Positions 742 to 26,776 of a stretch of 64,000 bases of DNA are shown one piece after another. This DNA comes from a virus (lineage: Duplodnaviria > Caudoviricetes). Numbering within the stretch: the first letter of the stretch is position 1; every line of letters starts with the position of its first letter. The position numbers were made by a program, and so were the translations under genes. The stretch is from positions 95,800 to 159,799 of IMG/VR virus record IMGVR_UViG_3300029305_004678; one strand, written 5' to 3'. The notes under the pieces were generated by a model. That model was not told the DNA's origin. It saw only the letters and a list, made by a program, of their open reading frames with translations, and did not search any database.

Positions 742-3700
742 TCAGCAATAGCTTGCTTGAGCAGCTCTAATAGCTTCAACCTGTTCAGGTGTATATCTAG
801 ATCTACTCAATTGAACAAGAGTATTCATATTGATAATAGTATCACGTTTGTGATTATATGAGTTATTGAACATACCATCATTCTTAGAAATATACATAGA
901 ATTTCTAGGATTGAAGACATATTCTGCAGAACGTTGAAAATCTTTATTGATGATTAGCATGATGTTTACGAATGTTCACACGGGTCGTTAATCCGTGCAG
1001 TTCTCTTATGAACTTCTACATGTTTCCATGTAGGCCAGACTATATCTACATCTTCATTTATGGAGAATAAATGAAGAGCTTCCCACTTCGAACTCACTTG
1101 AGCTCTACTCCCATTTCAGGGATAGTCGTTGAACGTTCCTCATATAGAGGCTTCGCTGCTGATTAGCATATCTATATAAAGACTTAGCCTCCCAGCAATT
1201 CAAGAAGATTTCGATATAGTGTCACCACTATATAGCCCTAATTTAATTAAGGTATCTCCATCAAAGTCTGCAGCAAGACCTTCGAGTACGGCCACAGGCA
1301 TTCCCATAGTGAATCCTACAGAAATTTCTGTACAATACATTTGAAGTATTCCACCCCATAGTGTTCACGTAGGTCGTTAATCTACGTCGTTCTCTTATGA
1401 ACTGCTATATGTTTCCACATAGATCAGACTATATCTACATCTCTATACTTGGAGAAGCATAGAGAGCTTCCCACTTCGAACTCACTTGAGTTCTACTCCC
1501 ATTTCATGGATAGTCGTTGAACCTTCCTCTTATATAAGAGGCTTGGCTGCTGATTAGCATGCTCTTTTGAGTTTAGCCTTCCAGCAATTCAAGAAGATTT
1601 CAATACAATATTACTATTGTATAGCCCAGGTTTATTTAGGGATATGGTTGGATTTCTATTAATTAAAATCGGAATACCTCTATCATAGGATTTAATAATA
1701 CCTTCGATTATATTTACAATAATCGGATTAGGTTCATGCATGGATTCATAGAGCAGTTTATATGCATCATTATATCTCATGAAGTAAGACTTCTGTAAGA
1801 TATTAATAATAGTCATCTGCAATAATCCACACAAACATGGATAACTCAGAGAAACCTCATCGATTCTCTTAGAAGGGTCTGGTGCTATAACAGAACGTGC
1901 TGTAAAGTTATCACGTGTTCACATAGGATCGCAACTCCTATGCAGTTCTCTTATGAACTTCTACATGTTTCCATGCAGGTCAGACTATATCTTAATCTCT
2001 TATAAAGAGATTTTGGCATTTCGATTTAATAGGACTTACACTGGACCTTGATGCCTAACCCCATTAGCTTGGGCTCTACGTCCTTACGGACTAGTCGTTG
2101 AACCTTTCTATTTAGATAATAGCAATCTTCAAATATAGACATCCAGTATCTTGATCGATATCTGGCTCTATATTATGGATCTTACAATTCATAATATCTT
2201 CGGGGAAGTCTTTTACATCTAGATATACCTTAGTGCAAAGCTCTTTAGCTTGTTCTAGCGTTATATCTTCAGAAGCTGTACCAAAGACATCATAAATATT
2301 AATTATTTTATATTTGTATGGATTTTGTCTAACTCCCGGATTTTGGTGCTTAGCAAAATCTGAAAGAGTCATATACAACTTACTCATACATCTATCCTCC
2401 AAATAGACTTGGCTGCTGATTAGCATTATACAAATAATTGTAATATTATTTTCTCATATAAATATATAGCTATTGACATTTCTATATAAAGACAATATAA
2501 AGATATTAATATAAGAAGTAAAATTACTATTATAAAAACATAGTTTTTCTTCATATATTAAGCCTCCCAGCAATTAACCAAAAACATACTTAAAGATTGC
2601 TCTTTAAGCAGCCATTTTTACATAGCGTCCACCAAAGAGTTGTCTTATCATTAAGACTACCATAATTTTCATTATGGATTAGACTATATCTTATCCCTCA
2701 GCTTTACCTGCTAGGGATCCTCCCACTTCGGAGTCATAACTATTTATGACTCCTACTCTACTCGGTTACTTACAAGAGTTTTTCATCTTGCTACCCTTTC
2801 GATAGTCGTTGAACGTTCTCTATTATATAGAGCTTCGCTGCTGATTAGCATGCTCTTTCGAGTTTAGCCTTCCAGCAATTCAAGAGGTTATTTTCTACGG
2901 ATTTCGCCGTAGGGATCCATAAGATAACTCTAGATCCTTTCTTGCCCGAGATAATCTTAGTAATCTCTTCATAAAGCTCCATGTACTTCATTTGGAGATC
3001 AAAAAGAAGTGTATCTTTAGGCTTTTTCTTTTTACCCATTTTTGTATTATCGTCGTTGATTTGGGCTACAAGTTTTACAATCAAATAATAGATTGCATTA
3101 GTTCCCTCATAATGAAGAACACCACCATCGAGACGATAAGGTCTTAAATGAATAGTAAAAACTGGAATAGATTGGATAAAGACTTTCTCTCTATCATTCA
3201 TGATACTCTCATAGTAATCACGTTTATTAGGCTTCTTATAGAGATAATACTCCATAATTTCATCAAATCTTTCATAGAAATCGAGCATACCGATTCCAAA
3301 GAATGGTTCATCCTTTGGCCTCTTGAAGTCAATTTCATGCCCATCCTCATCCTTCTTATTGACAGGAGTAATGATGTTTTTGAAGTCTTTCTCGCCAATA
3401 AAGAATGCAATAGACATATAAAGATTAGGATGAATAATATGATAAGGATCCTTGAGTACAGGATATCCAAACATACCGAAGTTATCACCTTTAAATGTGA
3501 CCTTAGTTCCACAAACGGGGCAAGTCTCACCCTGATTAAATCTGGCCTTAAGATGACCACAATCGCAACGATATCGATTACTACCTTCATCAATATCTTG
3601 TAGGGTGGGGCCATATTTGGTTGAGAAAATACCGTTAGGATCTTTAAGATCATACTTAATAGCTTTTGGAGAACTAATTATAAAACCATCACCTGATAGT

Positions 3701-3804
3701 ACATCACTGCGACGTTCTTTATCAATATTAATTCTCTCGAGTCTGGTCTCGTAATCGAAAGCTCCCGATCGCGAGTACCTTGTATTCACTTTTATTTCTG
3801 CCAT
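742..3804 (-). CDS. rpoC: phage multisubunit RNA polymerase beta-prime N-terminal subunit (non-virion type, AR9 gp270-like), spliced from 5 exons: 3804-2932, 2648-2624, 1911-1638, 1356-1250, 968-742 (501 aa)
   Basis: Joined exons total 1506 nt in frame. Motifs: Zn ribbon CDC..CPVC, GKKGS|IRQLFGGR|YNFTARSVI, NRNPTIS|LGGILQM, catalytic ADFDGDT|LNI. Confidence 0.93.
969..1249 (-). ncRNA. group I intron 4 of beta-prime gene (281 nt)
   Basis: P1 CCUUAAU/AUUAGGG with U.G; conserved core; terminal G; splicing restores DFDGDT-L-NIML. Confidence 0.92.
1357..1637 (-). ncRNA. group I intron 3 of beta-prime gene (281 nt)
   Basis: P1 CCUA/UGGG; conserved core; terminal G; splicing restores NPTIS-L-GGILQM. 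Confidence 0.9.
1912..2623 (-). ncRNA. group I intron 2 of beta-prime gene (712 nt, ORF in the P6 loop)
   Basis: P1 GCUAU/AUGGC with U.G; same P/Q/R/S core elements; terminal G at 1912; splicing restores GGR-Y-NFTARS. Confidence 0.9.
2112..2387 (-). CDS. intron-encoded hypothetical protein (91 aa), no homing endonuclease motif seen
   Basis: GGAGGA RBS at 2395-2400; lies between Q (AAUCAGCAGCC) and R (GUUCAACGACUA) of intron 2. Confidence 0.75.
   Translation of the reverse strand: MSKLYMTLSDFAKHQNPGVRQNPYKYKIINIYDVFGTASEDITLEQAKELCTKVYLDVKDFPEDIMNCKIHNIEPDIDQDTGCLYLKIAII
2649..2931 (-). ncRNA. group I intron 1 of beta-prime gene (283 nt, no ORF)
   Basis: P1 GGAUCU/GGAUCC with U.G at the 5' splice site; IGS GUUAUCUUAU pairs with 3' exon AUAAGACAAC; core AAUUGCUGG..AAUCAGCAG..GUUCAACGACUA..AAGAUAUAGUCU; terminal G. 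Confidence 0.92.
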
Positions 3805-3833
3805 ATTTTCATAACACCTCCAAAATGCTACTG

Positions 3834-3845
3834 TATTGAATAGTT
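3834..3845 (-). promoter_or_regulatory. AACT-N6-TA late-type phage promoter upstream of beta-prime N gene
   Basis: AACTATTCAATA; motif recurs upstream of about 25 genes in the window. Confidence 0.65.
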
Positions 3846-3846
3846 A

Positions 3847-3874
3847 GAGGAGGGGTTAATATTAACCCCTCCTC
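3847..3874. repeat. perfect 28-bp palindrome GAGGAGGGGTTAAT-ATTAACCCCTCCTC
   Basis: Seen directly; no adjacent U-tract. Confidence 0.9.
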
Positions 3875-3888
3875 AATAATTTAGAGGT

Positions 3889-4161
3889 TTACTTTGCTGT
3901 ACTCTTTACAGCATCAATTACACAGTCGAGAACCTTGTCAACCTGCCGCATGACAACATTCTTAACTGTAACACCAGCTTCGGTCATTACCTGCTTGACC
4001 TCATCTGTTCTCTGAATGACCTTTTCTACTGGGCGGATGCCTTCATACTTCTGGTCATTCTCCTGGAGATATCCAAGGAGCTGAGCATCATTATCAGCAT
4101 CATAATCTTTACCAAGCTGAACTAGTGCTCTCCGGGACAAATCCTCATAACTTCTAGACAT
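3889..4161 (-). CDS. hypothetical protein (90 aa)
   Basis: CAGGAGG RBS; clean ORF. Confidence 0.8.
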   Translation of the reverse strand: MSRSYEDLSRRALVQLGKDYDADNDAQLLGYLQENDQKYEGIRPVEKVIQRTDEVKQVMTEAGVTVKNVVMRQVDKVLDCVIDAVKSTAK

Positions 4162-4187
4162 ACTTTTGTTCCTCCTGTGTGTTTTAT

Positions 4188-4706
4188 TTATATCAAAGCT
4201 CTCTTAAAAAGTTCAAGATATACCTGATGTGCAGATTTATTACCATACACAAAAGATATAGCTTTGTCACTCTTAATCAAAGCTTTAATATTAAAGAAAC
4301 CTGCCCATTCGAATTGCATACATTTATATGCAAGAGCATTTTTATATTCCTTCGACTGCTCATTATAGTTAGAAACAATAGATTTCATATATTGAACAGA
4401 AGTGAAATATATAGGGGGATCAGGATAGTCGATTGATTTAAATTGATCATTAATAAAAAGACAAAATGTCCTCATATCATATTTGATGAAGGATACATCA
4501 ATCGGTTTACCATCTTCATCTACTATAATATATATTCTAACTATGGGATACATAAAATCATAATCATCAGTATCCCATCCCATAACTTTAAGGAACTCCT
4601 CAAACTCCGTATCCTGTATATCAGCATTCTTGACATCTGTCATAGATGTAAAAATACGATATCCCACAGTATGATTATCAATAGTGCAAGTCATCAGTTT
4701 ACTCAT
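4188..4706 (-). CDS. hypothetical protein (172 aa)
   Basis: Start overlaps the upstream gene stop. Confidence 0.75.
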   Translation of the reverse strand: MSKLMTCTIDNHTVGYRIFTSMTDVKNADIQDTEFEEFLKVMGWDTDDYDFMYPIVRIYIIVDEDGKPIDVSFIKYDMRTFCLFINDQFKSIDYPDPPIYFTSVQYMKSIVSNYNEQSKEYKNALAYKCMQFEWAGFFNIKALIKSDKAISFVYGNKSAHQVYLELFKRALI

Positions 4707-5307
4707 CTTTTGTACCCCATGTCTTTCTATTGAAGATCTTGTTCAAAGATCTAGCAGCTTCACTTTCGGGAGTAAGGAACAAATAAGAGTTTGTAAGAGT
4801 TATCGTACCAGTTTCAGATAAATCTGGTACAGATTTAAATCCGAAAGGCTCAAAGAAGTTCTCAAAGTCTGCACAGAAATCACTATGCTTATTCCAGAAG
4901 TCTTCAAGACTTTCGGCATTCTGATCTCCAGGAATACAGTGGGTCACAACAATATCTGTTGTAGAAGTTCTATAGCCTTTTAAGAAATCAAGTAATAGAG
5001 AAGTAGCAATACCTTGATTTCGATAGTCTTCATGAGTTTCGATAGATACTATGTTTACAACTCTTTTTATCTTTTCGAGACCATACTTCTTGATAATATC
5101 TAGAAAGCGTAATTTAGTCAAACAATCTCCGTAATCATATCTACCATCGGTAGAATAGATCTCTAGTTTAATCTCACATCTACCAGGATCATAGACTTTA
5201 TACTTATAAATTCCGTTTTCAATAGTATGAGCAGATACTCTATGAATTCCTGGTATTTCTAAACATTTGCCAGATCCATAGAATTTTTCATTATTAGCTG
5301 TATCCAT
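4699..5307 (-). CDS. GNAT-family acetyltransferase
   Basis: Acetyl-CoA motif IETHEDYRNQGIATSLL; FFEPFGF. Confidence 0.75.
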   Translation of the reverse strand: MDTANNEKFYGSGKCLEIPGIHRVSAHTIENGIYKYKVYDPGRCEIKLEIYSTDGRYDYGDCLTKLRFLDIIKKYGLEKIKRVVNIVSIETHEDYRNQGIATSLLLDFLKGYRTSTTDIVVTHCIPGDQNAESLEDFWNKHSDFCADFENFFEPFGFKSVPDLSETGTITLTNSYLFLTPESEAARSLNKIFNRKTWGTKDE

Positions 5308-7182: not shown

Positions 7183-9237
7183 TTATATCAATATCAAATT
7201 ATCGAAAATGCCATAAGATTCATTTTTTCTCGTTTGATTAAATATATTATCATTTCTTTCTAGAATACGCCTGTATTCTTTTATATATTCGATCTCTTCT
7301 TTAGCATATTTCTGAATGGCATATTGAATAGATTTATTAGATTTTTCTACTTCACGTTGAATTTCTTCTGGGGTATTACATGTAGTCGTTCTAATTGTTG
7401 CTCTGTCTCCATCCATTTGAATGGTAGTCACTTCAACTGGTTTTTCGATCTTTTTATCAGAATTTACTCCAAAAGTATTCTTAATCAATTCGGCTATTTT
7501 TAAAGCTAACTTTTTAAAGAATTCTATAATTCTTTTCCAAATTTCTGCAACAATTTGAGAAGCTTTATTAAAAAATTCTTTGAGCTTATCCCATACAATA
7601 CCTTCATTCATAGGATAAATGTTGCATAGTAAATCATATTCTTCATAAAGTTCATTTAAGCTATAGAATCTATATGGAGAATTAGTCTTATACAGATATT
7701 CATCTATATAGTTTTCTAAAGCAACAAGATCATCAATGCTATCTCCAAAATACTCTTTAAGGACAGATTGAGATCCATATGTAACTTTAAAATTTTTATC
7801 TTGTGTAAGATCTTTCGGAAGTGTCCATCCTCCAGGATTACAAGATCCTATAAATACATTCTTAAACCCTTCTTCTTTTAAAGCTCTAACAATATCTACA
7901 GCTTTAACTAAATTCGATTTGGTTAAAGTAGATATAGGCTCCATAGTCCAATTAGAAGCTGCGCCATCTTTCATCGCTTTCTTGGGATCTTTTCTAGAAC
8001 CAATAACATTATATATTTTATCACATTCTACAAGCCTTTTCTTAAATTCATTTCTACCATATTCTGTAAGTTTATATTTATTATAAATTTCTACCAATAA
8101 TTCTCGTGCTCTTGTCTTTAATTCGTGTAATTTATAATCTTCCATTGAATTTGCATTTTTTAAAGAATTACAAACACTAATTAATTCTTTTGTATATGGT
8201 AAGTCCGCAGATCCTGGAATTTTATTAGATAGCTCTTTTAAGAAATTTAATACATAAGTACTAAATTTTTCTATGAGCTCTATATCATATTTTATGCTTC
8301 TAGCAGTATATGATGCATTATCAGAAGGCTCTCCATATGCATCTTTAGAAGTTGATCCATGAGCATTGACAATAGCATCGTATTTAAAAATAAGACTTAA
8401 ATTCTTAGATGGATGCTCGCAAAACTGTATATCATCATTTTCTGATAAGAATAAAACTGCTCCGCCAATTGGACGAAAATCATAATTGTTACCAGATTTA
8501 AACTTTTGTAAAAGCTTAGGATCTCGTAAGAAATCTCTTATCTTTGCAGTAGCCTCATGATTTTTATCGTCATCATCCAAATCATTTATCAGAGACTCTG
8601 CTTCAGCTTTTGATAGATCAAATAGAGCATAATTCTGTTTGAGCATAGCTGTCAAGGAATCAGTTAGACATCTATTATTTGCTATTCTAGCATTGAGACA
8701 ATCTCTTATTCCTTGTTCATTTAAGGATTCTGGGAAATACTCCTGTGTGACAACTCTAGCAGCATCTTCTTCACTCATATTATACTTTTCAATTAGATCC
8801 ATATATCTACTATATAATGCGCTATGAAGAGAAATATTAAATTGCATCTGAAATTTATTTCTAATCTTATCATTATCATGCTCATATTCAATAGATTTTA
8901 CAAATCTTCCGAATCTTTTTATGTCATTACTATATACAGATGCCATATATTCATTAAAATCTTTTACAAGATCTTGGCTATGAGTTAAAGCTTCAAGTTT
9001 TGTTTTATTAAATAATTCTGGATTGGTTTTTGCAAGAGATTCAAACATATTTCCACTAGCATATGCATTATGTTTATTTCTTCCATCGCGATTTTTAAAA
9101 TATTTCTTATTATATTCTTCCTTATCAGTTCTGCTGACAGGAGTAGTATCTTTAGGTGAGTGGCTAGCCCTATTACCAGCTCTATAGTCTATATTTCTAA
9201 ATCTTTCGACATCTTCTCGAATTGTATAAATTGGCAT
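7183..9237 (-). CDS. putative internal head protein with caspase/C80-like His-Cys dyad
   Basis: AIVNAHG and VFIGSCNPG; amphipathic helix after MNEG; C-terminal NESYGIFDNLILI; AACA-N6-TA at 9264-9275. Confidence 0.55.
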   Translation of the reverse strand: MPIYTIREDVERFRNIDYRAGNRASHSPKDTTPVSRTDKEEYNKKYFKNRDGRNKHNAYASGNMFESLAKTNPELFNKTKLEALTHSQDLVKDFNEYMASVYSNDIKRFGRFVKSIEYEHDNDKIRNKFQMQFNISLHSALYSRYMDLIEKYNMSEEDAARVVTQEYFPESLNEQGIRDCLNARIANNRCLTDSLTAMLKQNYALFDLSKAEAESLINDLDDDDKNHEATAKIRDFLRDPKLLQKFKSGNNYDFRPIGGAVLFLSENDDIQFCEHPSKNLSLIFKYDAIVNAHGSTSKDAYGEPSDNASYTARSIKYDIELIEKFSTYVLNFLKELSNKIPGSADLPYTKELISVCNSLKNANSMEDYKLHELKTRARELLVEIYNKYKLTEYGRNEFKKRLVECDKIYNVIGSRKDPKKAMKDGAASNWTMEPISTLTKSNLVKAVDIVRALKEEGFKNVFIGSCNPGGWTLPKDLTQDKNFKVTYGSQSVLKEYFGDSIDDLVALENYIDEYLYKTNSPYRFYSLNELYEEYDLLCNIYPMNEGIVWDKLKEFFNKASQIVAEIWKRIIEFFKKLALKIAELIKNTFGVNSDKKIEKPVEVTTIQMDGDRATIRTTTCNTPEEIQREVEKSNKSIQYAIQKYAKEEIEYIKEYRRILERNDNIFNQTRKNESYGIFDNLILI

Positions 9238-12000: not shown

Positions 12001-12312
12001 TTAATTCATACCGAAGAAATTCTTATGAAGTAAGGTTATGAATAGATTAGGGTCTTTCTCAAATGTAGATATTTCGAACTGTTTTCTTGACATGAGTGTG
12101 CCATCTGCCAGAAGGCCGGTGAGTTCCAAGATCCCATTACCATTAAAGACAATAATAATATCTCTAATAGAACACATGGGATCACGGATATATTTTACGA
12201 TTATAGAGTATTTGGTTGGTTCGATTTTGATTTTATTAATGTGATCTTCAATAAATTCATGGCTAATAACTTTCATCATATCGATCACTGGCTCATTATT
12301 GATACTAATCAT
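12001..12312 (-). CDS. hypothetical protein, tandem paralog family
   Basis: VISHEFI and FNGNG motifs. Confidence 0.75.
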   Translation of the reverse strand: MISINNEPVIDMMKVISHEFIEDHINKIKIEPTKYSIIVKYIRDPMCSIRDIIIVFNGNGILELTGLLADGTLMSRKQFEISTFEKDPNLFITLLHKNFFGMN

Positions 12313-12450
12313 GTGGTTTCATTCTCCTTATGTATTTTTATTTTATTGTGACATGTATTATAACATCTCATATTTATACTATATAACTGTATCTGATATA
12401 AATTTCATACAAATAAATTGGGAGAAGCCTAAAGCTTCTCCCAATAATAA

Positions 12451-13716
12451 TTATTCATCAGGCAGGAATGCCTTCATAGGATCCATCTCTGTAAAATTAA
12501 GCTGATCATCGTGGAACAGTTTCATAGATAGAACTTTAAGCTTAGAAGGAATCTGAGGGGTAGATGCACCAATATTTCTAATACCTAATCTATAAAATAG
12601 ATTACCAGCACATTTATTGCAGATACCATTCTTTGCTTCGCACATGGAAGAGAATCTAATCTTAATCTTCTTACCGATAAATTTATCTTTATTCTCGGAA
12701 GTAATTTCTATCAATTCTCCATTATCCATTATTACGTAGCAATACATAATTGAGCCTATATTCTTATCAGTAACATTAACTTCTATATATCGTTTTGTTC
12801 CGCAATCAGTATCAGGATCTAGTAGAACTACATGCTGAAATGCAACGAGCAGGAGCTTCTCCCAGTATCCACCTAATTCTGTCTTTTTAGAACGAGAGTA
12901 GGGTCCAGCTGCAAGAGTATTTGCTAACTTGGAATATTCTTCTTTAGAAACTCCATCGATATAATTAGAAGTAATAATATTATAACTCTTTCTAGGATCC
13001 GGATCTTGTACAGAACCTCTCATGATAAACATATTCTTGAAGTTATTTTCAAAAGATCCACCAGCACCAGAGAGGAACATGTCCATAGCAGGATCATCTT
13101 TCATCAACTCTCTAGCATATTCGAGAAGTTCTTTACTAATCTTATCAACTACGATGACATCTCCAGCATCAATAGCAGCTTTATTCTCTTTAATAAGTTC
13201 TTCTTTTCTCTTATTTATACGCTTAGTGATAGTAAGCATATTATCAGAGTGGTTAGGTGCGAGAATACTTACATAAGGCATAAACTTCTGACTCTTTTTA
13301 CAGAAAGTTTTATAGCATTCAATACTTATCTTATCTTCTAGAACAGCATAACCGAGTTTATCGAACAATCTACCATATGCTTTCTTACTAATATTTTCAT
13401 CTACATATCCAATGAATCCAAGAAGTTCAGGGTCACTCTCAATAAAGAATTTATTGAATATAAGGCGACCTATAGTAGTTGTAAAAGGTTGCTTGTTCTT
13501 CTTCTCATTTCCATTAGAAAGAAGTCCACCATAACCACCAATTGGTACAGTGATAATATCATATGGATTAAACCACTGGTGCTTGTTAAAGTCGCCAAAT
13601 AGCTCCATAATTAAACTAGTAGTAATATCTTCTTCTTTTAATTTAACAATATATTCAATATCCTTAGGATCTGTAATCTGTTTAGAAACTCTTTTCTTTA
13701 CAGAAGTAGTAGCCAT
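12451..13716 (-). CDS. phage RNA polymerase beta-prime C-terminal subunit (virion type, phiKZ gp80-like)
   Basis: TTIGRLIFN, SGAGGS, SNYIDG, bridge-helix-like SKKTELGGYWEK, DCGT, and R-x-S-x-x-C...GICNKCAG Zn site; AACT-N6-TA at 13750-13761. Confidence 0.85.
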   Translation of the reverse strand: MATTSVKKRVSKQITDPKDIEYIVKLKEEDITTSLIMELFGDFNKHQWFNPYDIITVPIGGYGGLLSNGNEKKNKQPFTTTIGRLIFNKFFIESDPELLGFIGYVDENISKKAYGRLFDKLGYAVLEDKISIECYKTFCKKSQKFMPYVSILAPNHSDNMLTITKRINKRKEELIKENKAAIDAGDVIVVDKISKELLEYARELMKDDPAMDMFLSGAGGSFENNFKNMFIMRGSVQDPDPRKSYNIITSNYIDGVSKEEYSKLANTLAAGPYSRSKKTELGGYWEKLLLVAFQHVVLLDPDTDCGTKRYIEVNVTDKNIGSIMYCYVIMDNGELIEITSENKDKFIGKKIKIRFSSMCEAKNGICNKCAGNLFYRLGIRNIGASTPQIPSKLKVLSMKLFHDDQLNFTEMDPMKAFLPDE

Positions 13717-22055: not shown

Positions 22056-22866
22056 ATTTTGATGCAAAATATACAGATGCAAGCATGCTATTTAATTTAC
22101 GAAGAATACTCTCATTATGACTAATATCAAGATTGTGATATTTATCGAAATCTGTAGCATTATCTATAAAATATTCCCATCTTGCTGATATACCTGGATT
22201 GAGTTTATATTTTGATTGACTATTCAATTCTCTATAATACTCTATAGATAATCTTCTATTGATATAATTATCATGAAAGTATCCAAGCAAAGATATAGCA
22301 TCTTGAAGGAATTCTATTTGCGCACAATAGAAAAGTGTACATAAGAATTCTAGCATAAAGTTTTTATGAAGAGCTACAGCTTCATCACCAAGACCTTTTA
22401 TATCCAAAATCTCAGCGTTATCTATTCTATTACAATAATAGTAAAAGTCTAGATGTCCTATATGATAAAATGAAGTATATTTTGCTGCTTCTCTAAAAGC
22501 TACACGATCAGAGATATTCAATACCTTTACAGGTCTATTTCCAATTATTACTATAGCATCGTTTCTTATAGCTAATATTTCATGATCCTGAATGTTATTA
22601 GATTCTATAAACACCCTTCTTGCATTAGCAATACCTTGTTTAAGTATCTTAACAACTTCAGGATTAGATCCCTCAAGCTTACCTATATATATCTGCCTCT
22701 CCAGTTTCGGACATTGAGTCAAATACATATAAGTCTCCTGCGAGATCACATTAGCATCTCGAAGTACATTTATATTAGCTTTAGTTATATCGAATTCTCT
22801 AATAGTACCATCAATCATAAATTGAAGATCGGCGCGATAGTTTGTTCTTTCCCATATCTTACTCAT
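22054..22866 (-). CDS. conserved-looking phage protein with DNA polymerase palm-like motifs
   Basis: REFDITKANINVL and LAIRNDAI acidic motifs; LDIKGLGD. Confidence 0.5.
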   Translation of the reverse strand: MSKIWERTNYRADLQFMIDGTIREFDITKANINVLRDANVISQETYMYLTQCPKLERQIYIGKLEGSNPEVVKILKQGIANARRVFIESNNIQDHEILAIRNDAIVIIGNRPVKVLNISDRVAFREAAKYTSFYHIGHLDFYYYCNRIDNAEILDIKGLGDEAVALHKNFMLEFLCTLFYCAQIEFLQDAISLLGYFHDNYINRRLSIEYYRELNSQSKYKLNPGISARWEYFIDNATDFDKYHNLDISHNESILRKLNSMLASVYFASK

Positions 22867-23371
22867 AACTATCACCATCTATATTCTGGCCGTTCATCAT
22901 TCTCCATCTCATTAGATCTTGATCTAGAGCGAATAAGCCAGGAATACTAAATTCTGGTTCTGATATATACATGATATCTTCTATTTCATTTATAAGATAT
23001 GAATTATATCCATATCTCTGCTGAATTAGTTTTATTAGAGATTCTACGAATGCTATGGTATAATCATTATAAAGAATAGCTATATGCACCATAGTATCAG
23101 GCTGCATATAAACTGGTATAATGATTGACATAAATTGAGAGAATGCCATATCATTTGATAAAATGAAATTATGATAAGCTTGATCGAAATCTGTTGTAGC
23201 GCAATCTCCGGTCAAGATATCTTCAGAAATGAATTCGCTCGATGGGACTAATAAATTCAATATAGGCATTTCTGCATAGTAATGAGACAGGTTGTATTTA
23301 ACAACCTGTCTCACGCCTTTGCTCTGCAATATATCGACAGGAAAGTCCCTAATTGGTGTAAATACAATCAT
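22859..23371 (-). CDS. hypothetical protein (170 aa)
   Basis: Coupled ORF in operon. Confidence 0.8.
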   Translation of the reverse strand: MIVFTPIRDFPVDILQSKGVRQVVKYNLSHYYAEMPILNLLVPSSEFISEDILTGDCATTDFDQAYHNFILSNDMAFSQFMSIIIPVYMQPDTMVHIAILYNDYTIAFVESLIKLIQQRYGYNSYLINEIEDIMYISEPEFSIPGLFALDQDLMRWRMMNGQNIDGDSYE

Positions 23372-24024
23372 AAACCAACTAGCGGATCTACTAAGAATTT
23401 TCCACCATTGTTGTAGATCGCGTCTTTGACTATCTCAAAATATTTAGAGTAGTTTTCAAAATCTCTCTTTTCGACAATAGGATTTTCTTCATACGCCATT
23501 TTAGAGATAGCTGAAGGATGAATTGGAAGCGGTGGATGCTTCATCATAAAAGTAGCATAATCGATAATATTTGCATTATAAAGCTTTGCCAAATCAAAAG
23601 GAATCATTTCCTCTAGAATATAAGGCTGAACTTTACCTTGAATTCCCAAGACCAAACCAAAATATCTATACAGATAATCGATAAGCATCTTTGGAAATTG
23701 CATATTCATCTCGTCCCTACCAAACATAATTCCTATAGGGATCTGATTTAGTGCTGCGGCAATAATAATACTTATGAAAGGATCTGCTTCGGGTGTCTGA
23801 AGGTAGTAATAATAAATGCCTTCAGCATCAGCATAATTCTTATCAAGTTCCATTTGGATAGCTTCATACGGAGGTAATAATGCACCTGCCGTAACTATTG
23901 CCGGATGTGTGGAAAATTTAGGATGAGGTTCTTCTACAACGTAGATAACTTTTCCTCCAGTAAATGTGAAGGATTCGAACTCATCTTCTCCGATTACCCA
24001 CATATTAATTGGATAATTGGCCAT
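23368..24024 (-). CDS. hypothetical protein (218 aa)
   Basis: AAGGAGG RBS; coupled ORF. Confidence 0.8.
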   Translation of the reverse strand: MANYPINMWVIGEDEFESFTFTGGKVIYVVEEPHPKFSTHPAIVTAGALLPPYEAIQMELDKNYADAEGIYYYYLQTPEADPFISIIIAAALNQIPIGIMFGRDEMNMQFPKMLIDYLYRYFGLVLGIQGKVQPYILEEMIPFDLAKLYNANIIDYATFMMKHPPLPIHPSAISKMAYEENPIVEKRDFENYSKYFEIVKDAIYNNGGKFLVDPLVGL

Positions 24025-24045
24025 AGAGTTATCCTCCTTTTTAAA

Positions 24046-25539
24046 TTACTTAGAAGCTGGAATATGAACAGTCTTGGGAGACTTACGCTCACGCCGCTTA
24101 TTGGAAGTTGCATCTGCTTTAGCATTAGCTTCCTTAACCCAGTCAGGAATTTTATCTTCAGGAATATCTTTCATAGAAACAAACTTCTTGTTTCTCATTG
24201 CCTGTACTCTTCCACTAGGGTGAGGAATGAATCTAAGATCATCTAATTCTTCCTGAACTGTAGCATCTTCTTCATCAGCTACAAAATCTTCAGATGAAGT
24301 GGATTCATCATCTTTAGATTCTTCGTTTTCCAAATCATGAGGATTTGCACACTCTGATTCATCTTCCTCGGAATCAAAAGCATTCTCATCTTCCATATTA
24401 TCTGTATTTTCGATCTTGGTTTCTACTTCTTCCTCGGAATCAAAAGCATTCTCACCTTCTGTATTATCGGTATTTTCAACCTCGGTTACCGATTCCACTT
24501 CAGAGGTTATTGCAGTTTCATCTTTGGTTGGAATAATGATTTTTCCATTATCGATGATGGTCTCCTCTACGGGAGGAGTAGTTACAATAGAAGTCTCATC
24601 AATTTGCTCATCAGACTTCTTAGAGATTGCTCCACCTTCCAGAACAGCATGAAGTCTCTGCTCTCCGATAGGCTTCTTAGGCGGTTGCTGTTTTGTGATC
24701 GTATCATCCATAGGAATAGGATCATATACGACCTCGTTGCCTCTAACTAATTGAACTTTCATACTATAGCCTCCTTTAGCTATTATCTTTTTGTTATCGG
24801 GGGTATCATCTCTTAAATCTACTGCTAGATATATTTTTCCGCATCTGTTACAGACAAGATGATTAAAACCACTATTGTAATCAATTTCACCGTTACAGAT
24901 GCAGTTAAAATCTTGAAGATATTCATTACAATATAACTTCTTTCCATCCAATTTATACACATATGGATAGTCAAGAAGTACAGGTCCATGGCCTATACGA
25001 ATACCCCAATTCATGAAATATTTAGTTCCAACATCTTCTACTACATACTTACCAAGAAACTTAGTTACAAGTATATCAAAAACGTCAGATGCTATTTCTT
25101 TGAATTCTCCAATATTCTTTATAGGAATAACACGTTCAGCAAATCCTACAGTACCACATGGAGATATACAAAACATTTTAGATACATATGGCTTCAAGAA
25201 AAACTGATTTTGATACTCCATTGGATTGTCTTGCATTCCAACTCTATCTACAGCAATTTTTACCAAGAAACTTGTATCTTCATAGAATGAGTATACTACT
25301 CTATTAGTACCTGCTGCGAAACGTTTAAAGCCTCTAGCTCTCATAATATTATCAATCATCTTGTATTTCTCTCTAATTTTACCAGCGAGTTTTACAGATG
25401 TCGCAATTTTTCTAAGAGCTTCGATATCTTGTGGAGAAAGATAGAATGTCATAGGATATGGTAGACATATTCTTTCGAAATGATCTTCCATTGGAGACAT
25501 TCTTTTTGCTTTAAGAATATCTAATACATCTATTGCCAT
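24046..25539 (-). CDS. protein kinase-like protein with Zn finger and acidic tail
   Basis: AAGTNRVVY, LVKIA..DNPME, EDVG..MNWG, LLDYPY; C..CNG...CNRCG. Confidence 0.65.
   Translation of the reverse strand: MAIDVLDILKAKRMSPMEDHFERICLPYPMTFYLSPQDIEALRKIATSVKLAGKIREKYKMIDNIMRARGFKRFAAGTNRVVYSFYEDTSFLVKIAVDRVGMQDNPMEYQNQFFLKPYVSKMFCISPCGTVGFAERVIPIKNIGEFKEIASDVFDILVTKFLGKYVVEDVGTKYFMNWGIRIGHGPVLLDYPYVYKLDGKKLYCNEYLQDFNCICNGEIDYNSGFNHLVCNRCGKIYLAVDLRDDTPDNKKIIAKGGYSMKVQLVRGNEVVYDPIPMDDTITKQQPPKKPIGEQRLHAVLEGGAISKKSDEQIDETSIVTTPPVEETIIDNGKIIIPTKDETAITSEVESVTEVENTDNTEGENAFDSEEEVETKIENTDNMEDENAFDSEEDESECANPHDLENEESKDDESTSSEDFVADEEDATVQEELDDLRFIPHPSGRVQAMRNKKFVSMKDIPEDKIPDWVKEANAKADATSNKRRERKSPKTVHIPASK
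24362..24477. repeat. in-frame direct repeat (~50 nt, 66-nt period) encoding ENTDN(T/M)E(G/D)ENAFDSEE
   Basis: Copies at 24362-24411 and 24428-24477. Confidence 0.85.
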
Positions 25540-25575
25540 AATTACACCTCACTATTTTATAGAAGTACTAGACAT

Positions 25576-26742
25576 CTACTCTTGATCTCGACCAATAGAG
25601 TTTATAAATCTTTGTCGAGCAGCTTCTAGTCTATCTGCTATAAATCCTGGTGGCTTGATATCATAGGTGCCAGTAACAGGATTATAACTAAAGCTAGAAG
25701 ATATAGATGGATCATGCTGCGGGCTTACAGGCATTCCATTAGGCAAAATACCATTTCTAGATGCAAATCTATCTATAGCATTAATCTGAGATTTTGTCTG
25801 TATGCCATTAGATTCAAGAAGTTTTCTTCTAAACTCCTGAGCATTATAGAGTGCTTTAGCATTAGAACCATATTGTTGCATTCTCAACAAACGAGTCGAA
25901 TAATCTGCATAAATAGGTCCTCCGGCATTATTCATGAAATACATGAAAGATTTATCATCGAATAATCTTTCAGGAGCATTTTGATATATGAGCTCGAATA
26001 CTTTTTCTTTTTGAAATTGCTCTCGACTCATTATATCCGCCATACGCGCAACTGCATCGTTAACTTGAGCATTCTGATGAGGATCGATTACTTTTGTCTT
26101 TTTGACTTCTGTAATTTCTTGATCCCCTCTCATAAGGACAACTTTCATAGGATTATGAGGCCGAACTTCATATAAAGAACTCTGAATTTGCTCTGGTCTA
26201 ATTATATCAAATGTAGCCTCACACTGCTTAGCTTCTTCTTCTGTTCTACCAAGTCCTTTACTTACTATTCTAGACATTGATTTATAAAGAAGCTCATCAT
26301 TCTTTAGCTGATCATCATAACTCAGTCCATTAGCAACTGCATTATAATAGACAGCCCTAGACGCATCATCCATATACATAGGATTAGGTCCACCCATTAA
26401 ACCATAGCCCATATATGATCCATAACCCATATAAGGGTTACTATAGTTTTGGAATGCAGATTGGAATCCAGAATTATAGCCTCCAACTAAATTATTTTGT
26501 GGTGCAAATGAAGTTGGATAATATGCTTGTTGCTGGGCTCCTGCTTGCATTACCATATCTTTTGGAGATGGGTATGGAGTGGAAAAGCCGGTACTACTTT
26601 GTACCGGCTGTGTTTGAGTGCTGATTTGTGGTTGATTGCCAAAATATACTGGCATATTTCCTACACCTTGCGGAAGATTATTCATCATCGCCTGCACTGT
26701 AGGGGAATTGATGTTTAGCATGGAATCTCCTCCTGCTTTCAT
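25576..26742 (-). CDS. hypothetical protein with Q/P/G/Y-rich N-terminus
   Basis: Long ORF; GTATATTATA at 26754-26763. Confidence 0.8.
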   Translation of the reverse strand: MKAGGDSMLNINSPTVQAMMNNLPQGVGNMPVYFGNQPQISTQTQPVQSSTGFSTPYPSPKDMVMQAGAQQQAYYPTSFAPQNNLVGGYNSGFQSAFQNYSNPYMGYGSYMGYGLMGGPNPMYMDDASRAVYYNAVANGLSYDDQLKNDELLYKSMSRIVSKGLGRTEEEAKQCEATFDIIRPEQIQSSLYEVRPHNPMKVVLMRGDQEITEVKKTKVIDPHQNAQVNDAVARMADIMSREQFQKEKVFELIYQNAPERLFDDKSFMYFMNNAGGPIYADYSTRLLRMQQYGSNAKALYNAQEFRRKLLESNGIQTKSQINAIDRFASRNGILPNGMPVSPQHDPSISSSFSYNPVTGTYDIKPPGFIADRLEAARQRFINSIGRDQE

Positions 26743-26776
26743 ATTTTCATAAGTATAATATACGATTAATTATACT

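Follow-up and report, generated by a model that had tools for sequence, protein, structure and literature searches.

Can a gene that is interrupted four times around its most conserved motifs encode the catalytic subunit of a multisubunit RNA polymerase (RNAP)? The question is raised by positions 3804-742, read on the minus strand, of the window analysed here, a stretch of 64 kilobases (kb) that forms the end of IMG/VR viral record IMGVR_UViG_3300029305_004678, a 159.8 kb contig estimated to be ~65% complete and derived from a giant phage of the gut that has not been cultured and is a relative of Bacillus phage AR9. In the plain list of open reading frames (ORFs), the RNAP gene is split into a 319-amino-acid (aa) ORF beginning at 3804 and unconnected ORFs of 81, 46 and 72 aa downstream. 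The reading favoured here, with a probability of about 0.9, is that the locus is a gene for the N-terminal beta-prime subunit of a non-virion RNAP (nvRNAP), carrying four introns of a lineage shared with AR9, whose transcript would be self-spliced to encode a 501-aa protein. That four group I introns are present in the gene is supported by covariance-model matches, by natural alleles that lack an intron and by colinear alignment to homologues without introns.

Joining of the five exons gives a product of 1506 nucleotides (nt) forming a single ORF of 501 codons and a stop. Exon 1 (2932..3804; all features of the gene lie on the minus strand) contributes 873 nt, corresponding to codons 1-291, from the ATG at 3804 to a terminal GKKGS, and was assigned from the ORF list and from phrog_2987, PDB and tblastn matches. 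It is followed by intron 1 (2649..2931), a group I intron of 283 nt that lacks an ORF, has its terminal G at 2649 and is supported by a match to Rfam model RF00028 and by its P1 and P10 helices. Exon 2 (2624..2648) is a micro-exon of only 25 nt encoding IRQLFGGR and the first base of a tyrosine codon, and was recognised by the continuity of this motif with intron-less relatives. Intron 2 (1912..2623; 712 nt, terminal G at 1912) is likewise read as a group I intron, from partial RF00028 matches, core alignment, its P1 helix and a natural allele that lacks it. Exon 3 (1638..1911; 274 nt) extends from YNFTARSVI to NRNPTIS plus two nt of the next codon and matches phrog_2987 and PDB entries, and the ORF-less group I intron 3 (1357..1637; 281 nt, guide GGGCUAU, terminal G at 1357) is again supported by RF00028 and by P1 and P10. 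Exon 4 (1250..1356; 107 nt), identified by phrog_2987/2986 and colinear alignment, encodes GGILQMYC through AADFDGDT plus one nt and contains the catalytic Asp triad. The ORF-less group I intron 4 (969..1249; 281 nt, guide GGGCUAU, terminal G at 969), supported by RF00028 and P1, separates it from exon 5 (742..968; 227 nt including the TGA stop at 744-742), which encodes the C-terminal 75 aa and is colinear with the C-terminus of g274 of Yersinia phage phiR1-37 and of other relatives.

The four junctions fall between nt 873 and 1279 of the spliced coding sequence, a span of 406 nt, and the GKKGxIRxLxGGRxNF, NRNPT and DFDGD motifs, the last being the catalytic Mg-binding motif of beta-prime, are complete and in frame only once the exons are joined. 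A preliminary description of this DNA had placed four inserts within about 410 nt of coding sequence, had derived a 501-aa ORF from the joined exons and had predicted that gene callers would fragment the gene; each of these statements holds, and the coordinates obtained here are identical to those first proposed.

The encoded protein was identified from its pieces. Three of these, encoded by exons 1, 3 and 4, match phrog_2987, annotated as RNA polymerase beta subunit, in the order of the profile (positions 46-282, 320-385 and 404-427), with E values of 1.2e-19 for exon 1 and 2.8e-11 for exon 3; exon 4 matches phrog_2987/2986. No exon taken singly has a Pfam match. The best PDB match of exon 1 is chain d of 7S00/7S01, the AR9 nvRNAP beta-prime subunit (1.3e-11), and exon 3 matches residues 247-336 of 7S01_d (1.9e-9); the next PDB relative is phiKZ gp55 (7OGP). 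Searches with tblastn recovered phiR1-37 g274 and AR9 g270, the latter annotated as non-virion RNAP subunit, beta-prime N-terminus. After DFDGD the protein continues for 75 residues, and its end is colinear with that of g274; phage beta-prime subunits are known to share a split site shortly after the double-psi beta-barrel (PMC7598289). Because of the PDB and tblastn matches and the end at the shared split site, the gene is identified at the sequence level as encoding the catalytic N-terminal beta-prime subunit of the non-virion, or late, multisubunit RNAP, the enzyme responsible for late-gene transcription in AR9-type phages, and is the predicted orthologue of AR9 gp270.

The nature of the inserts was determined with RF00028, for which the gathering score is 50 bits. 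Introns 1, 3 and 4 match the full model (positions 1-253) at 95.4, 84.6 and 95.8 bits, with E values of 1e-21 to 1e-25, while intron 2 is matched in part, at 26.8-38.5 bits. The lower score of intron 2 is due to its two loop insertions: 130 nt are added in P5 (2556-2427) and 287 nt in P6 (2400-2114). Once these are taken out, 295 nt of intron 2 remain, and every invariant block is retained in their alignment to introns 1, 3 and 4, with which they share 56-69% identity. A MAFFT alignment of the four raw introns misplaced the 5′ half of intron 2, and the final alignment was therefore made after removal of both loop insertions by coordinates. Pairwise identity among the intron copies is 57-82%. 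The invariant core blocks common to all four, which include the P7 strands, are AAUUGCUGG, AUGCUAAUCAGCAGC, GUUCAACGACUA, AGAUAUAGUCU and GGAAAC, and a 3′ tail is common to introns 2, 3 and 4. Other classes of insert were considered and rejected: inteins are excluded by stop codons in all frames of the inserts together with the ribozyme model matches, and group II introns by the lack of any such matches.

The splice sites carry the features of group I introns at every junction. The 5′ splice sites of introns 1 to 4 follow UCU, GCU, CCU and CCU, respectively, and in four of four the last exon base, U, pairs with a G in the predicted P1 hairpin; the terminal (omega) G is likewise present in all four, as had been claimed from the sequence. 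In intron 1, P1 is formed by GGAUCU and GGAUCC with a U.G pair, and in intron 2 by GCUAU and AUGGC, a helix of 5 base pairs (bp) with a U.G pair that comprises the last 3 nt of exon 2 and 2 intron nt. In introns 3 and 4, P1 is formed by CCU and GGG and is extended by AUA and UAU. A P10 helix can be drawn for each intron, with 6 bp in intron 1, 2-3 bp in intron 2, 4 bp in intron 3 (ACCU with GGGU) and 3 bp in intron 4; P10 is dispensable in some introns (PMC10136302).

Alignment with intron-less homologues agrees with two independent lines, the splice-site features and natural intron-free alleles, on the positions of the junctions. The spliced protein aligns with phiR1-37 g274, a beta-prime N-terminal subunit encoded without introns, at 31% identity (E 3e-54) over residues 42-477 with no gap at any junction, the conserved residues GKxG..IR..L.G.R.NF crossing junctions 1 and 2, INRNP.I..G crossing junction 3 and AD.DGD.LN crossing junction 4. 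An intron-less relative among the IMG/VR records (L007; L numbers denote the loci compared) matches residues 1-498 in a single frame, and colinearity with intron-less homologues thus extends through all four junctions. The closest relatives, L004-6, which share 75% identity in exon 1, show no interruption at sites 1, 2 and 3, and the same is true of L011 and L016 at these sites. The motif reconstituted by exon 2 stands unbroken in L004, L007, L011, L016 and phiR1-37. No alternative in-frame junction exists at site 2 or at site 3, at the latter because a shift meets a stop codon.

A natural allele provides further evidence for the limits of intron 2. Among the Logan contigs assembled from independent faecal and gut sequencing runs (X1-X6, of which X6 comes from a separate study and a separate year), a contig of run X2 contains an intron-1-like 3′ end followed by a diverged 25-mer encoding IRALFGGR, and then proceeds straight into exon 3 at 1911. 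This contig is an allele with intron 1 and without intron 2, joined exactly at the predicted 2624/1911 boundary, and it marks the exact limits of intron 2.

The micro-exon would have to serve both of its neighbours, as the preliminary description had proposed, and both of the pairings that this involves can be found. Nucleotides 1-6 of exon 2 pair perfectly with positions 8-13 of intron 1 to form its 6 bp P10, and nucleotides 23-25 are the exon strand of the intron 2 P1, so that the two roles do not overlap. Skipping of exon 2 shifts the reading frame. Experiments with tandem Tetrahymena introns showed that skipping is suppressed when the splice-site recognition elements differ (PMC10136302), and inclusion rather than skipping of exon 2 would be expected in this gene because the guide sequences of introns 1 and 2 differ and the two introns are no more than 56% alike.

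From these features we infer splicing, and its order, as follows. The gene would have been invaded by four group I introns of a lineage that also populates AR9 RNAP genes, and one precursor transcript would cover the whole gene and contain four independent ribozymes. The core of each intron would fold, bind guanosine and direct cleavage 3′ of the U that forms the U.G pair of that intron's P1, and exon ligation would be aided by P10 and the terminal G. Exon 2 would be recognised at its 5′ end by intron 1 through P10 and at its 3′ end by intron 2 through P1, and the outcome would be a 1506-nt mRNA for a 501-aa protein with its catalytic motifs intact.

Intron 2 is the only one of the four introns in which ORFs were found. 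ORF91 (2112..2387, minus strand; MSKLYM...) encodes a 91-aa protein from the P6 loop and has a GGAGG upstream. It has seven homologues at 45-90% identity, three of which begin or end with translated intron-core sequence and are therefore located in the same kind of intron. No Pfam or PHROG match was found for ORF91, a pattern scan of IMG/VR gave no relative, and a protein atlas contained just sub-threshold clusters of hypothetical proteins. An AlphaFold model (AF2, mean predicted local distance difference test score, pLDDT, of 82) yielded no credible fold match, with Foldseek E values against the PDB of at least 0.46 and VIA-align wide Z scores of at most 3.5, and no nuclease fold. No homing endonuclease of the LAGLIDADG, GIY-YIG, HNH, His-Cys box or any other type was recognised in the four introns, and introns 1, 3 and 4 have no ORF in the ORF list. 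ORF91 is described as a conserved cargo protein that resembles no recognisable homing endonuclease but may be a novel nuclease. A possible hydrophobic ORF of 42 aa (2426..2554, minus strand) lies in the P5-loop insertion of the same intron, and its putative coding status is based on the ORF list only.

A second intron-rich RNAP gene is located on the same contig, outside the window, at ~22463-26774 on the minus strand (genome G000:C1; 1464-5775 of L003), and contains five RF00028 matches. It is a homologue of the non-viral RNA polymerase specificity subunit (AR9 gp226 type; phrog_25005), of which an intact 531-aa version is found in relatives L019 and L020. One of its introns contains a 369-aa HNH endonuclease (L003 2581-3687). 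The gene also includes a candidate micro-exon of 18 nt, encoding YTGNIG (L003 4101-4118, C1:25100-25117, minus strand), which is shorter than the 25-nt exon 2 and is flanked by RF00028 matches at 4119-4381 and 3871-4099; its proposed limits derive from the reading frame, the terminal G, the preceding U and alignment to the intact homologue. Another group I intron match (RF00028 match 4724-5305) holds in its P6 loop a tRNA-Leu(UAA) gene (L003 4959-5046, C1:25958-26045, minus strand) whose CCA is encoded and which lies on the same strand as the intron. The tRNA gene was called by ARAGORN and scored 54.8 bits with the Rfam tRNA model, and it occupies the same loop as ORF91 in intron 2 of the window. 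No report of a phage tRNA gene carried by an intron came up in a text search of the literature.

The occupancy of the beta-prime gene by introns varies widely among relatives. L007 and phiR1-37 carry none. Single introns are found in L004-6 at DFD/GD (the slash marks the insertion point), in L016 at AAD/FDGD and in AR9 gp270 at DYDG/D, the last with an HNH endonuclease. L015 has two introns, at INRN/PT and AAD/FDGD, and L008-10 have at least four, including one at GG/RYNF, with a short exon containing INRNPTIA. RF00028, even with permissive thresholds, did not detect the introns of L004, L011, L015 and L016, which were recognised from core motifs and junction reading, and the exact splice sites of L008 and L010 near INRNPT and DYDGD(T) are ambiguous. 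In L008 (~8060-8095) and L010 (~8755-8790), an exon of ~30 nt encoding INRNPTIA(YG) stands between introns, one of which has an HNH-like ORF. Taken together, these phages have introns at five or more distinct positions in a 16-nt stretch around DFDGD, counting those after DYDGD(T) in L008 and L010 and one nt past DFDGDT in the window (1250-1268), making these codons an intron hot spot. Mobile introns usually land in conserved, essential motifs (reviewed in PMC12908238), and insertion points scattered in this way are what repeated, independent invasions of the most strongly conserved codons leave behind. The relatives carry zero, one, two or at least four introns in the same gene, and the introns therefore appear to be dispensable, variable passengers and no conserved regulatory device.

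Introns 3 and 4 may preserve a trace of how such introns move. They are 81% identical, share the guide GGGCUAU and have similar upstream targets, AUAUCCCU and AGAUACCU, and for these reasons one of them is probably derived from the other through ectopic insertion where the guide matched the target, either by reverse splicing or by illegitimate homing. The single intron of L004 (IMGVR_UViG_3300029305_005724), at DFD/GD, carries a ~137-nt element in its P6 loop (~7363-7499) with a tRNA-like acceptor stem, T arm and CCA end and an over-long middle; neither ARAGORN nor Rfam made a call for it. A wider and tentative extension, which we regard as possible but doubtful, is that, in this clade of uncultured AR9-like gut phages, an endonuclease-free intron lineage multiplies within and between nvRNAP genes by guide-directed insertion of a reverse-splicing type, for which introns 3 and 4 provide the hint, and that the P6 loop serves as a general cargo slot for an HNH endonuclease, the 91-aa protein, tRNA-Leu(UAA) and the tRNA-like element. 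If so, intron excision from polymerase mRNA would also deliver functional RNAs and proteins.

The preliminary description had suggested that the introns act as a timer, and in its fuller form this proposal holds that four splicing events, together with five in the specificity-subunit gene, delay or gate assembly of the late polymerase and thereby time the early-to-late switch. Rfam and core motifs detect nine group I introns on the 160-kb contig, and all of these do sit in two nvRNAP genes, four in one and five in the other, which are genes of one enzyme. However, the number of introns in relatives ranges from none (L007, phiR1-37) through one (L004, L016, AR9) and two (L015) to at least four (L008-10), at different nucleotides, a pattern of occupancy that fits selfish, dispensable insertions, and the conserved motifs that they occupy are where mobile introns usually land (PMC12908238). 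The contig is also incomplete, so that further introns may be present elsewhere. The timer finds no support here and is considered very unlikely.

Slightly less probable again is that the gene is decaying, with at least one intron, most likely intron 2, which has the two loop insertions and a weak P1 and P10, no longer splicing, and the copy being a pseudogene. The score of intron 2 under the Rfam threshold and its P10 of just 2-3 bp are in keeping with this, but the five exons maintain one open frame with every catalytic motif intact, no core block, the P7 strands included, varies among the four introns, and the same layout recurs in other samples with few substitutions. No second copy of the gene was found in a search that covered relatives only, on a contig that is incomplete. 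That a metagenome assembler stitched repeated introns into the gene can practically be dismissed: the introns do form a repeat family (57-82% identity) and the Logan contigs of the region are highly fragmented, but copies this divergent would not collapse, exon-intron borders are crossed with 0-5 differences by single contigs of X1, X3 and X6, and independently assembled relatives have the same kind of architecture. Contigs X1 rec5, X3 rec21 and X6 rec29 each bridge intron 2, exon 2 and intron 1, and the bridging contigs include 2306-2706 and 2403-3064 across intron 2, exon 2 and intron 1 and 1001-1471 across intron 4, exon 4 and intron 3.

Several points weigh against a self-spliced nvRNAP gene. 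At best, intron 2 reaches 38.5 of the 50 bits required by RF00028, and with a P1 of 3 exon bp and a P10 of 2-3 bp its splicing efficiency is uncertain; the exon part of P1 is just 3 bp in introns 3 and 4 too. No RNA run was among those listed as containing the stretch.

Upstream of the gene, a perfect GC-rich hairpin at 3826-3876 of the window lies between the preceding gene (3889-4161, minus strand) and the RNAP gene start. It has a weak, sub-threshold Rfam match to ssNA-helicase RNA (22 bits, E 0.78) and is most simply interpreted as a terminator.

The interpretation of this locus as an nvRNAP gene with four group I introns has its main value in annotation. Gene callers will split the gene into four or five pieces, so that the catalytic subunit of the late RNAP is missed, and the coordinates given here repair the gene. 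The locus also contributes a natural, well-documented example of tandem group I introns flanking a 25-nt exon, and the natural intron-plus and intron-minus allele pairs could be used to study intron spread without homing endonucleases. It does not change the understanding of how such genes are expressed.

The closest precedent is AR9 gp270 (AR9 gene features are taken from the GenBank annotation, KU878088.1), the orthologous protein, in which a group I intron of the same lineage, judged by core and 3′ tail, interrupts the catalytic DxDGD motif. Unlike the window gene with its four introns, AR9 gp270 has one, located after DYDG, 7 nt upstream of the intron 4 site, and this intron encodes the HNH endonuclease g271, whereas introns 1, 3 and 4 here are without ORFs. 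AR9 g189, which encodes the virion RNAP beta N-terminal subunit, is a join of six pieces with five group I introns, and has 5-6 RF00028 matches in 2.9 kb. Two of these (12224-12483 and 12013-12172 of L021, KU878088.1 149146-155764) leave an exon of at most ~51 nt, and introns 2-4 of the window share their 3′ tail (AGUUCAUAAGAGAAC-hairpin) with the g189 introns. This gene differs from the window gene in specifying another subunit of another polymerase and in having an HNH gene in one of its introns. The statement in the preliminary description that intron density is high is thus only partly right, since the density is not exceptional for this phage group, being comparable in AR9 g189.

The micro-exon also has counterparts. 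In orf142 of Staphylococcus phage Twort, as far as the summary of Landthaler & Shub 1999 in PMC10136302 describes it, three group I introns are present, with a 23-nt exon between two similar IA2 introns and skipping of that exon. From that summary, orf142 resembles the window gene in that several group I introns interrupt a protein-coding gene of a phage and that a micro-exon of almost equal size must serve both neighbours; by the same account it differs in having three introns rather than four, and in that its flanking introns are highly similar and the exon is skipped, whereas introns 1 and 2 here are 56% alike with different guides. A 34-nt exon lies between two group I introns in the 23S rRNA gene of Coxiella burnetii (PMC10136302), and the DNA polymerase and terminase genes of Bastillevirinae contain up to three introns (PMC11878797); these resemble the window gene in their short exons between group I introns or in being essential genes with multiple introns, but are rRNA or other phage genes with fewer introns per gene. 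In view of AR9 g189, Twort orf142, Coxiella and the Bastillevirinae, the intron density and the micro-exon of this nvRNAP gene are not new in kind.

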